A DNA stretch of 48,419 nucleotides from a bacterium (GCA_027624915.1 JAQBTR010000005.1:1-48419); one strand, 5' to 3'; positions 23,333 through 41,423 are shown, counted from the first letter of the stretch. Notes: generated by a model not told the origin, from the sequence alone. Made by a program: numbers and translations.

Positions 23333-23407
23333 TGGTGCCGCGAGTCAGAATTGAACTGACGACACGACGCTCTTCAGGCGTCTGCTCTACCACTGAGCTA
23401 CCGCGGC
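23333..23407 (-). tRNA. tRNA-Phe(GAA) with CCA
   Basis: GCCGCGGTAGCTCAGTGGTAGAGCAGACGCCT-GAA-GAGCGTCGTGTCGTCAGTTCAATTCTGACTCGCGGCACCA. Confidence 0.95.
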
Positions 23408-23592: not shown

Positions 23593-23736
23593 AACCTGCG
23601 ACATCTTCTTAATCAGTACTTTGTGGGCGATGCAGGACTCGAACCTGCGACATCTTCGGTGTAATCGTTAAAAAGACATAACATGTCTTTTTAACTCCAG
23701 CCAACCCCCCCCACATTCTATTGCTTAAAGTCTTAG

Positions 23737-23810
23737 TGGGCGATGCAGGACTCGAACCTGCGACATCTTCGGTGTAAACGAAGCGCTCTAGCCAACTGAG
23801 CTAATCGCCC
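23737..23810 (-). tRNA. tRNA-Val(TAC), no CCA
   Basis: GGGCGATTAGCTCAGTTGGCTAGAGCGCTTCGTT-TAC-ACCGAAGATGTCGCAGGTTCGAGTCCTGCATCGCCCA. Confidence 0.95.
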
Positions 23811-38420: not shown

Positions 38421-40091
38421 GTGGCAGAATTTGATAAAGAAAAACGAGAAGAAAAATTAGCTAATATACGATCAAGGGAGGAAGAAGACCTTGCTCGTAT
38501 TTTGTCTAAGCGTTATAAAATCCCATACCTTGATCTTACACGAGTTTCAATTGATCTTGACGCCCTAAAAAAAATTCCCGAAGAAAAGTCTCGAGCCGCT
38601 GGCGTGGCTATTGTACAGGCAACTGGACGAAAACTACAGGTTGCTGTAAAAAATCCAAACATTGCATCCGTAAGAGAAATTATTGAAGAACTCCATAGAG
38701 AAGGTTATGAGCCTCAACTTTTCCTAGCTTCAATTCAAAGCCTTGAACGAGCATGGGTGCGATATAAAGAAATAGCAAAAGAAAGCATACAAACTGGAGA
38801 TATTATAGATATCTACAAAGACGATGTTCGTGATTTTCGAAATAAATTAAAAAATTCTAAAGATTTTCAAAAAGAACTGTCTACAAAAATCGCACAGGGT
38901 GCCTCTAGAAGGGCAACGGACCTTTTAGACTTAGTATTGGCTGGCGCATATGAACTCGAAGCTTCTGATATTCATATCGAACCAGAAGAGACTCTTGCTA
39001 AATTTCGATTAAGGCTCGATGGAATTCTGCACAATATCTTAGACTTAACACACGAAGCCCATAGAATACTCTTATCGCGCATCAAGCTTACATCTGGTTT
39101 AAAACTCAATATACATAAACGGGCGCAAGATGGAAGGTTTACAATTCGCAATAACGATGTAGACATTGAAATCCGTGTTTCTACATTGCCAGGACCATAC
39201 GGCGAATCTATTGTTATGCGTTTGTTGCACCCTAATGCAATCTCAACAACTTTTGACGAACTTGGTATGTTAAAACCTGTCCGTGAAATGATTGAAAAAG
39301 AAATTCATCGTCCTAACGGAATGGTAATAACGACAGGCCCTACCGGCTCTGGTAAAACAACTACACTGTATGCTTTTTTGAAAAAGCTTCGTAGCTCAGA
39401 AATAAAAATAATCACAATTGAAGACCCTATCGAGTATCACCTACAAGGAATTACACAAACTCAGGTGAGTCATTCGGCAGAATACACATTTGAAACTGGT
39501 CTTTCTGCGATTGTTCGTCAGGACCCTGATATCATCTTAGTTGGTGAGATTAGAAACAAAGAGACTGCGGAAATTGCTATGCATGCATCACTAACAGGAC
39601 ACTTGGTATTCTCTACATTACACACAAACAACGCCCCAGGAACAATACCTCGTTTGGTTGACCTTGGTGTACAGCCAAATATTATAGCGCCAGCAATCAA
39701 CGTAGCTATTGCACAACGACTTGTGCGCAAGCTTTGTGCTCACTGTCGTCAGGAAACAAGAGTAACGGAGGAGGAGGAGCAAATCATTATAAAAGCGGTA
39801 GAGGCTCTACCAAAGACCTATAAAAAACCAGACTTAACAAATATAAAAACTTTTGGATCAAACGCATGTGATAAATGTAACTACACAGGATACAAGGGGC
39901 GTATTGGTGTGTTTGAGGCCTTCTTGATTGATGATGAGATTGAGCAATTAATTTTAAAAAATCCTTCTGAGGCGGCTGTCAGAGAGGCGGCGGTTAGGAA
40001 GGGTATGGCAAGTATGCTTCAGGATGGTATCTTAAAGCTTCTCCTTGGCCTAACAACATTCTCTGAACTTAAAAGAACTGTGGGAATTTAA
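38421..40091 (+). CDS. pilB: Type IV pilus assembly ATPase PilB/GspE family
   Basis: ASDIHIEP, QDGR, GPTGSGKTTTLY, EDPIEY, RQDPD, TGHLVFSTLHTN, CxxC pairs. Confidence 0.9.
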   Translation: MAEFDKEKREEKLANIRSREEEDLARILSKRYKIPYLDLTRVSIDLDALKKIPEEKSRAAGVAIVQATGRKLQVAVKNPNIASVREIIEELHREGYEPQLFLASIQSLERAWVRYKEIAKESIQTGDIIDIYKDDVRDFRNKLKNSKDFQKELSTKIAQGASRRATDLLDLVLAGAYELEASDIHIEPEETLAKFRLRLDGILHNILDLTHEAHRILLSRIKLTSGLKLNIHKRAQDGRFTIRNNDVDIEIRVSTLPGPYGESIVMRLLHPNAISTTFDELGMLKPVREMIEKEIHRPNGMVITTGPTGSGKTTTLYAFLKKLRSSEIKIITIEDPIEYHLQGITQTQVSHSAEYTFETGLSAIVRQDPDIILVGEIRNKETAEIAMHASLTGHLVFSTLHTNNAPGTIPRLVDLGVQPNIIAPAINVAIAQRLVRKLCAHCRQETRVTEEEEQIIIKAVEALPKTYKKPDLTNIKTFGSNACDKCNYTGYKGRIGVFEAFLIDDEIEQLILKNPSEAAVREAAVRKGMASMLQDGILKLLLGLTTFSELKRTVGI

Positions 40092-40125
40092 AAAAACACC
40101 CCGCTAATAGGGGAGTGTTTTTTTA
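40089..40125. terminator. Bidirectional terminator between pilB and the candidate ncRNA
   Basis: TAAAAAAACAC-CCC..GGG-AGTGTTTTTTTA. Confidence 0.75.
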
Positions 40126-40132
40126 AACAAAA

Positions 40133-40370
40133 GTTCTCTCTAAAAGTCTCCAGGCAATGTGCCCGGGCATGGGTACCACGGGCTGAGAGCCCCTTCGAGG
40201 AACAACCGAGCGACCCCCTCCTTTCAAAAAAGATATCACTGGCATACAAGACAAAATATGTCATAGTACCCATATATCCTTCCTGAAAGGAAAGGGACCA
40301 GGTTGCCCAATGACTAAAAGAAGGCCCAGATAAGGTAAACCTCACTTGCCTAGAGACTCCTAGAGAGAAC
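40133..40370 (-). ncRNA. Unassigned highly structured ncRNA candidate (~238 nt)
   Basis: Ends form a ~25-bp stem; inner stems TCTGGGC/GCCCGGG and ATGGGTACTATG/CGTGGTACCCAT; non-WC pairs are G-U on the minus strand; terminator directly downstream. Confidence 0.7.
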
Positions 40371-40421
40371 AATTATAGATATATCAAACAAGCGGACATA
40401 TTGTAGCGTAAAATTACTAAG

Positions 40422-41423
40422 ATGTCAATACCCAAAAAAAAACAAGAGGAATTTGCCCTAGATAGTACATTACGACCAAATCAATGGGATGATTACGTGG
40501 GTCAGCAATCTATAAAGGAAAATCTACAGATTCTTATTGAGGCTGCAAAAAAAAGGAAAGAACCTTTGGAACACCTTCTTTTTTATGGTCCTCCTGGTCT
40601 TGGAAAGACAACTCTCGCACACCTTATACGCTCAGAAATGGGGGCACAAATGAAAATTACCTCTGGGCCTGCAATAGAAAAAGTTGGTGATTTAGCATCC
40701 ATTCTCACAAACCTACAAGACAATGATATTTTGTTTATTGATGAGGTGCATCGACTAAATAAGCTGGTTGAAGAGATTTTATATCCAGCAATGGAGGCGC
40801 GGAGCCTAGATATTATTATAGGAAAAGGTCCTGCGGCACGCACTATCCAAATAGAGCTCCCAAAATTTTCACTGGTTGCAGCAACAACTCGTATAGCCCT
40901 TTTGTCTTCCCCTCTTCGTTCTCGTTTTTCTGGAGGAATATACAGATTAGAATATTATACCGAAGAAAATATACAAAAAATCTTAGCTCGTTCGGCAATG
41001 TTGCTTGGAGTGACAGCGGAGGATTCAGCTCTTATGGAAATAGCCAAAAGAAGTAGGTTTACGCCACGCATGGCAAATCATCTACTAAAACGCTGTCGTG
41101 ACGTTGCAATAGTTAGAGGAGATGGTATTATTTCTCAACGTATAGCAAAGATGGCTTTAGATCTTCTTGATATAGACGAACTTGGTTTAGAGGCAGAGGA
41201 TAGAAGAATTTTGGATATATTAGTAAATAAATTTAATGGTGGTCCTGTTGGACTCGGAACTCTTGCGGCAGCTGCATCAGAGGAAGTAAGCACTATTGAA
41301 GAAATACACGAACCATATCTTTTACGTCTAGGATTTATCGAACGCACACCAAGAGGTCGCATAGCCACAAACAAAGCTTATGAACACTTAGGCCTATCCG
41401 TTAATGATGGCCAGTTATTCTAA
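40422..41423 (+). CDS. ruvB: Holliday junction helicase RuvB
   Basis: LRP, GPPGLGKTTLA, FIDEVHRL, GGPVGL, RTPRGR. Confidence 0.97.
   Translation: MSIPKKKQEEFALDSTLRPNQWDDYVGQQSIKENLQILIEAAKKRKEPLEHLLFYGPPGLGKTTLAHLIRSEMGAQMKITSGPAIEKVGDLASILTNLQDNDILFIDEVHRLNKLVEEILYPAMEARSLDIIIGKGPAARTIQIELPKFSLVAATTRIALLSSPLRSRFSGGIYRLEYYTEENIQKILARSAMLLGVTAEDSALMEIAKRSRFTPRMANHLLKRCRDVAIVRGDGIISQRIAKMALDLLDIDELGLEAEDRRILDILVNKFNGGPVGLGTLAAAASEEVSTIEEIHEPYLLRLGFIERTPRGRIATNKAYEHLGLSVNDGQLF

Follow-up and report, generated by a model that had tools for sequence, protein, structure and literature searches.

Several described bacterial RNAs resemble the RNA reported here in one respect or another. 6S RNA (SsrS; RF00013) is alike in size, likewise has a gene of its own with a strong promoter, is widely kept as a single copy, and has long closing and apical helices around an irregular centre. 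The present RNA differs from it in having no RF00013 match, in forming a junction rather than a bubble, and in occurring together with canonical 6S in seven out of seven genomes of its class that carry the latter. Ms1 RNA of mycobacteria reportedly has a 6S-like fold without being a true 6S RNA and is said to bind RNA polymerase differently; it thereby offers a precedent for a second class of polymerase-binding RNA, although it belongs to a different taxon and is likened to the present RNA by its reported description rather than by sequence or model. OLE, ROOL, GOLLD and raiA are large conserved bacterial non-coding RNAs held in Rfam. Like the RNA described here, they were discovered through covariation, are lineage-restricted and highly structured, and have no known function; the present RNA is smaller, is tied to one syntenic site and has no match in Rfam 15. 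Bacterial SRP RNAs (RF00169, RF01854) resemble it as hairpin RNAs of housekeeping type whose internal loops are conserved. Unlike them, the present RNA matches neither model, belongs to a lineage without Ffh and FtsY, and varies at its tip. Paceibacteria and their relatives, whose genomes are very small, represent a large uncultivated share of bacterial diversity, and features that all of them keep are likely to be important. An RNA of about 170 nt that is single-copy, preceded by a near-consensus promoter, found class-wide and possibly beyond, outside every universal RNA family, and co-existing with 6S is therefore a candidate for a new class of housekeeping RNA, with a standing comparable to that of the orphan RNAs OLE, ROOL and raiA at their first report.

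The window analyzed here is a stretch of 48,419 nucleotides from a Paceibacteria-type genome (hereafter G000; 839,310 bases in 31 contigs, 98.6% complete). A structured RNA element of 242 nt lies on its minus strand between pilB, which encodes a type IV pilus ATPase, and ruvB, both of which are on the plus strand; yebC and ruvC come after ruvB (Table 1). The closest named RuvB records were from Paceibacteria, Paceibacterota or Parcubacteria MAGs. The RNA is antisense to pilB and ruvB and overlaps neither coding sequence, and on its own strand there is no coding gene ahead of the terminator. It is not a cis-regulatory leader or a riboswitch, as its functional strand runs opposite to that of the two neighbouring genes. 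A genome-wide search of G000 recovered the element once, and no second copy was present within the window. A preliminary description of this DNA had proposed a structured non-coding RNA on the minus strand, encoded by an independent gene. The proposal was borne out by the fold z-score, covariation, covariance-model matches and the promoter, and it is considered highly probable that the locus holds a genuine RNA gene whose family is uncatalogued. The overall reading adopted here, held with confidence slightly better than even, is that of an independently transcribed, single-copy Paceibacteria RNA gene whose product would act in trans by binding protein, as a scaffold or a decoy.

Table 1 Positions of the RNA gene, its parts and its neighbours in the window, with related loci in other genomes (prefix L, loci)
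Feature	Position	Strand	Evidence or remark
pilB (type IV pilus ATPase)	38421..40091	+	Pfam T2SSE 377 bits; opposite-strand neighbour, downstream of the RNA
A7-hairpin-U7, terminator-like both ways	about 40086-40132	both	-18.7 kcal/mol minus, -18.1 kcal/mol plus, z about -5
RNA core (covariance-model match, 242 nt)	40131..40372	-	207.5 bits, MFE z -10.6, single copy in G000
P1, closing helix, 26 bp	40371-40345 with 40158-40132	-	all 26 pairs with double changes, 93.1% of cells paired (35 sequences)
P2, small 5' hairpin UGAGG-UUUA-CCUUA	40344-40340 with 40335-40331	-	5/5 pairs covary, class level
P3, long irregular arm	40327-40279 with 40230-40187	-	three helices of 12, 9 and 14 pairs; 89.9-93.5% of cells paired
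P4, 3' hairpin GCCCG-UGGU-ACCC-AUGCC-CGGGC	40183-40174 with 40169-40161	-	9/9 pairs with double changes, 94.2% paired
RNA promoter TTGACA-17-TACAAT (predicted)	40428..40400	-	11/12 consensus matches; about 27 nt upstream of P1
ruvB	40422..41423	+	Pfam RuvB_N, AAA_lid_4, RuvB_C; head-to-head with the RNA
6S-type RNAs in seven genomes of the class (G030, G073, G117, G067, G089, G065, G043)	L093-L099		
Folded elements upstream of ruvB in other classes	L125:2715-2990; L124:933-1239; L110:865-1030	+; -; -	

The two strands of the element differed in predicted folding. The minimum free energy of the minus strand was -125.7 kcal/mol (z -10.6), a value equalled by none of 200 shuffles, and that of the plus strand was -85.7 kcal/mol (z -5.8). 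A covariance model (R1) was built from 10 family sequences, namely the G000 element and those of nine relatives. At the window locus it matched the minus strand over the full model with an E-value of 9.7e-61, and scored 207.5 bits on this strand versus 26.8 bits on the plus strand. This difference, together with the abundance of G-U pairs, settled the minus strand as the functional one; many pairs are G-U on the minus strand and A-C on the plus strand, as the preliminary description had noticed. The 25-26-nt ends of the element pair perfectly or with G-U, and the 25-nt end pairing seen earlier corresponds to helix P1, with 26 pairs.

Four helices, P1 to P4, were backed by covariation across the aligned homologues. 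RNAalifold applied to MAFFT alignments returned the same four helices from 10 sequences, with double compensatory changes in 22 out of 70 pairs, and from 22 sequences, with such changes in 38 out of 60. An alignment of 35 order and class sequences was fitted to the structure of the model and is biased toward that structure, of which the MAFFT and RNAalifold runs are independent; in it, 92.7% of paired cells could pair versus 70.8% in shuffles, and double changes were seen in 70 of the 75 pairs, values that 0 of 500 shuffles reached. As a control, sliding the partners by 1-3 columns lowered pairing to 41-54%. The highest mutual-information pairs were helix pairs; mutual information gave no convincing pseudoknot or tertiary helix, only a single extra U-A pair beside P4. 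These patterns point to a stable, folded RNA under purifying selection both on its structure and on specific letters of its duplex and bulge.

The core of the predicted RNA is a four-way junction with short linkers, and homologues range from 140 to 240 nt. Class-wide, the inner 13 bp of P1 are conserved in sequence, as AGYCUCYAGGCAAU on the 5' strand and AUUGCCURGAGRCU on the 3' strand. In P2 the letters themselves change, for example from UAAGG/CCUUA to AUCCC/GGGAU. P3 has a conserved segment in which CUUAG, a bulge of 0-5 nt and GGA stand opposite UCC-UCGRAG, and two conserved G-C pairs flank the next internal loop; its invariant positions are G65, G66, G75, C163 and C174. The tip of P3 (40231-40278) is variable and contains an insertion of about 40 nt seen only in G000. 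P4 is capped by a conserved loop of CCYA type. P2 is absent from one genome of the class (G024) and from f83 relatives, and members without it form a three-way junction in which the 5' linker of about 8 nt is unpaired and the 3' side is a hairpin. The inner stems drawn in the preliminary description did not survive this comparison. For the stem UCUGGGC/GCCCGGG, relatives instead pair CUGGGCC with the GGCUCUCAG side of P3, and the GCCCGGG side, GCCCGGGC, is the 3' half of the covarying hairpin P4. For the stem AUGGGUACUAUG/CGUGGUACCCAU, the first half falls within the tip insertion unique to G000, and relatives do not keep the pairing. Relatives likewise do not keep the local hairpins GGGCU-CUC-AGCCC and UUCCU-UUC-AGGAA.

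Two features of the G000 element could be read in terms other than an RNA gene. Its 25-nt ends resemble terminal inverted repeats, as expected of a MITE or other repeat, and a 94-aa ORF (40088-40372) spans it, as would a small protein gene. However, the element occurs in one copy in G000 and in every relative, at a fixed syntenic site, and phage and plasmid collections contained no match to it. The ORF across the element exists only in G000, and frames and lengths vary among the 20 relatives examined. The probability of a mobile repeat, which the preliminary description had named as a possible outcome, or of a small protein gene is thus considered negligible, and the absence of a conserved reading frame in 20 relatives indicates a non-coding RNA gene.

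A sigma-70-type promoter was predicted ahead of the RNA, and TTGACA (with at most one mismatch)-17-TAnnnT preceded it in 40 out of 46 homologous loci. The preliminary description had pointed to a TATAAT just upstream; the literal box is present at 40377-40372 but is not conserved in homologues, and the conserved promoter is the one farther upstream listed in Table 1. Its -35 hexamer is complementary to ATGTCAA, with which ruvB begins (40422-40428, plus strand). In 18 of the 46 loci, including the window, the -35 box and the ruvB start codon overlap, and 28 of the 46 have no such overlap. No Shine-Dalgarno-like sequence was visible in the 50 nt before the ruvB start, so the ruvB mRNA may have a very short leader or lack one. 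At the other end, the terminator described as directly following the RNA was seen as a hairpin with U7, although a stricter terminator pattern scan called none there because the loop of the A7-hairpin-U7 exceeds 8 nt. By its motifs, this structure would end both the RNA and the pilB transcripts, and in many homologues a U-run directly follows P1. The RNA is thus predicted to be its own transcription unit, with ends and abundance judged from promoter and terminator motifs only. Among three listed sequencing runs of one study, the stretch was present in only one (share 0.82), possibly as DNA, and none of the listed runs that contain it is recorded as RNA.

The element was detected by blastn in nine out of nine same-family genomes at about 70% identity, and the covariance model found exactly one locus in each of 22 order genomes. 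With strict batch filters, one locus each was found in 29 out of 151 class genomes, and these counts for the class (29/151) and for the phylum (1/151) are lower bounds because the model is insensitive at distance. A filters-off scan of the ruvB locus turned six out of six further class genomes, previously scored negative, into positives with 34-71 bits; G067, for instance, was missed by the filtered search and scored 55 bits at the locus with filters off. The order pilB-RNA-ruvB was seen in 21 of the 22 order loci and in 19 of 23 class loci. By sequence and model searches, the RNA family appears to be kept throughout class Paceibacteria (Parcubacteria, CPR) as a single copy. The linkage between the RNA and ruvB could have a mechanical cause in the placement of the promoter over the ruvB start codon, which also makes an effect on ruvB expression testable.

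Given this tight linkage to the ruvB start codon, the act of transcription could matter rather than the RNA product. In that case the RNA would be incidental, and divergent transcription would tune ruvB-yebC-ruvC through promoter occlusion or supercoiling. The head-to-head arrangement with ruvB and the loci in which the -35 box covers its start codon, the window among them, are consistent with this. However, about 170 nt of helices are under compensatory change, for which transcription alone would not select, and the -35 box is clear of the start codon in the larger number of loci. A further point comes from G024, which belongs to the same class and is 100% complete by markers. No RuvB was found in its 541,665-base assembly, and ruvC is retained. 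In its contig C5 (L162:1310-3415), the place of ruvB is occupied by an ORF of 241 aa that carries a Lamin Tail Domain (PF00932, 59 bits) and lies between the RNA gene and yebC-ruvC, at the syntenic pilB-to-yebC-ruvC site. A shortened RNA without P2 persists there (23 bits with the covariance model, E 9e-7). This single case argues against a RuvB-dependent function of the RNA, and with the preceding points it makes an incidental transcript quite improbable. The same genome bears on the idea that the RNA could mimic a four-way (Holliday) DNA junction and titrate junction-binding enzymes (RuvA, RuvC) whose genes are adjacent. The four-way core with its short linkers would suit such a mimic, as would the position of the gene beside ruvB-yebC-ruvC across the class and the similar RNA upstream of ruvB in another class. 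Yet the loss of the P2 arm in G024 and the f83 relatives leaves a three-way junction, the RNA outlasts ruvB in G024, though ruvC is still present there, and RNA helices are A-form; a junction mimic is accordingly rated as very unlikely.

Known RNA families were searched for with Rfam 15 (4227 models). At gathering score, the element had no match, in agreement with the preliminary description, and the whole window yielded five tRNAs and nothing else. At E<=10, matches at this locus were noise (the top one, mir-553, had 21.9 bits against a cut-off of 82), and at E<=1 the only match among 20 homologous loci was a chance snoRNA hit of 25.7 bits. Y RNA models (YrlA type) matched neither the locus (E<=10) nor the 20 homologous loci (E<=1). 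The signatures of RNase P RNA and tmRNA had been reported as absent from the element, and both were rejected as its identity, since each was found elsewhere in G000 (RF00010, 140.8 bits, contig C24; RF00023, 98.3 bits, contig C13). The RNase P RNA match (C24:13503-14037) covers 535 nt for a model of 367 positions, which suggests large insertions in the RNase P RNA of this lineage. Literature full text (supplements apart) on RNA topics in CPR, Patescibacteria and Parcubacteria contained no paper describing the RNA. The earlier suggestion of a new class fits an RNA family that is uncatalogued and new relative to Rfam 15 and the searchable literature.

SRP RNA, whose signature had likewise been reported as absent, was considered because both bacterial models were blank in G000 and, were an SRP present in the cell, its RNA would be unaccounted for. 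Neither RF00169 nor RF01854 matched in G000 or at the element locus. The protein partners were also absent: Ffh and FtsY were not found in G000, which had no SRP_SPB (M) domain, no TIGR00959 (ffh) match and, in ORFs of at least 150 aa, no DT[AS]GR motif, which we take to be a motif of SRP54-type GTPases. The SRP54 GTPase was over cut-off in 0 of 22 order genomes, in three of 81 class genomes, where the matches were only P-loop stretches of 22-24 bits, and it had a match in 0 of 61 genomes of the phylum sample. Since SRP54 GTPases were not found in any of these 61 phylum-wide genomes, a link between SRP loss and the RNA was rejected as a class-specific correlation. The present searches agree with what two publications state, namely SRP loss in Parcubacteria (Nelson & Stegen 2015, PMC4508563) and missing SRP subunits in many CPR bacteria (PMC8080830), so that SRP loss in the lineage is already published. 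In the element, the tip of P3, where the conserved tetraloop and loops would be expected, varies freely. With no model match, absent partners and a variable tip, SRP RNA was rejected, and even a highly divergent 4.5S-type RNA is considered extremely improbable.

The main rival to the reading adopted here is a divergent or second 6S-like RNA that would bind the holoenzyme as a mimic of an open promoter, the junction taking the part of the bubble, P1 that of the duplex downstream of it and P3 that of the duplex upstream. The size of 140-240 nt, the rod-like outline, the long closing and apical helices and the strong promoter of its own would all be expected of such an RNA, and the template-side strand of inner P1 is conserved in sequence. 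Members without P2, with their unpaired 5' linker of about 8 nt, come closer to a bubble, and to this extent there is a partial likeness to 6S. In addition, canonical 6S was not found in G000, in any of the 22 order genomes or, at E<=0.01, in 144 of the 151 class genomes. A 6S-signature look-alike in an intergenic region of G000 contig C19 was rejected because no Rfam family matched it and its fold z-score was 0.0.

Against a 6S-like RNA, RF00013 (gathering score 46.4 bits) gave no match at the element at E<=10, elsewhere in G000, or at 20 homologous loci at E<=1. No order genome had a match over cut-off (0/22), and the weak matches there were located elsewhere. In other parts of the phylum the model did recover canonical 6S-type RNAs, seven out of 151 genomes being over cut-off and 20 out of 151 having a match at E<=0.001. 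Within the class, seven out of 151 genomes had a match at E<=0.01 with 23.9-52.1 bits, that of G030 (52.1 bits) being above cut-off. In all seven of these genomes the ruvB-adjacent RNA is present as well, on a different contig or at a different position, as detected by the class-wide model search in G117 and by filters-off locus scans in the other six. The seven 6S-type RNAs share a separate conserved core of their own, UGGGUCAAA ... GGGAGYC ... CACCCACCUGGA, and 14 6S-type loci (13 from other classes plus that of G067) had no pilB, ruvB or yebC nearby. The centre of the present RNA is predicted to be a compact junction with no large open bubble, holding two hairpins, P2 with 5 pairs and P4 with 9, all with double changes. 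Finally, no covariation was seen for an alternative 'release' pairing of J3/4 with the P1 3' strand, which was rejected. The model mismatch, the shape of the junction and the co-occurrence with canonical 6S indicate that the RNA is not a 6S orthologue, contrary to the earlier proposal of a divergent 6S RNA, and a 6S-like polymerase-binding RNA, as modelled above, is regarded as rather unlikely.

For the trans-acting scaffold or decoy adopted here, the following course is proposed. Transcription of the RNA would start from the near-consensus promoter with its -35 box on the ruvB start codon, and the transcript would end at P1 and the U-run or at the downstream hairpin. The RNA would then act in trans, presenting to a protein a surface formed by the sequence-conserved inner part of P1 and the junction, plus the bulge region of P3. 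A role in trans is suggested because the RNA is not positioned for action in cis, and binding of a protein because there is no long unpaired stretch for base-pairing and because the conserved letters are found where protein-recognition sites have them, in helices and bulges. The protein-binding part draws only on this pattern of conserved letters at paired and bulged positions, and taken by itself the trans-acting protein-binding mechanism is put forward tentatively, as a possibility somewhat short of even. A more specific version, to which only a low probability is given, would be a CPR-specific system in which the RNA is a non-6S nucleic-acid mimic or RNP scaffold for RNA polymerase or a DNA-junction enzyme, its transcription being coupled to the recombination operon through the ruvB start codon. 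The conserved duplex and bulge could provide handles for pull-downs.

Candidates for related RNAs were also seen beyond the class. Across 25 ruvB loci of other classes, the covariance model with filters off gave weak matches only. The best of these, in G174, had 20.8 bits and lay on the opposite strand upstream of ruvB, with a fold z-score of -8.4, and a 78%-identical copy occupies the same position in a genus-mate (G201). The layout of this G174/G201 element comprises a long P1 whose inner part is of the UGUAGGCGG type, P3, P4 and a UCCUCGG segment, without P2; its P3 has a variable tip and four double changes. A rod-shaped element upstream of ruvB in G187, again on the opposite strand, scored 14.3 bits, with z -7.4. 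In other classes, scanning the region ahead of ruvB for the loose motif YNAGGY...RCCUNR proved uninformative. By their sequence and layout, the G174/G201 and G187 elements are probable remote relatives of the RNA in one or more further classes of the phylum.

Elsewhere in the window, two minus-strand tRNA genes lie at 23336-23407 and 23737-23810. The 3' part of a tRNA is directly duplicated (23619-23667 versus 23732-23780, 96%), and several perfect inverted repeats of 19-24 nt surround the tRNA genes between 23540 and 23915, a region that may be a cluster of duplicated or partial tRNA genes.
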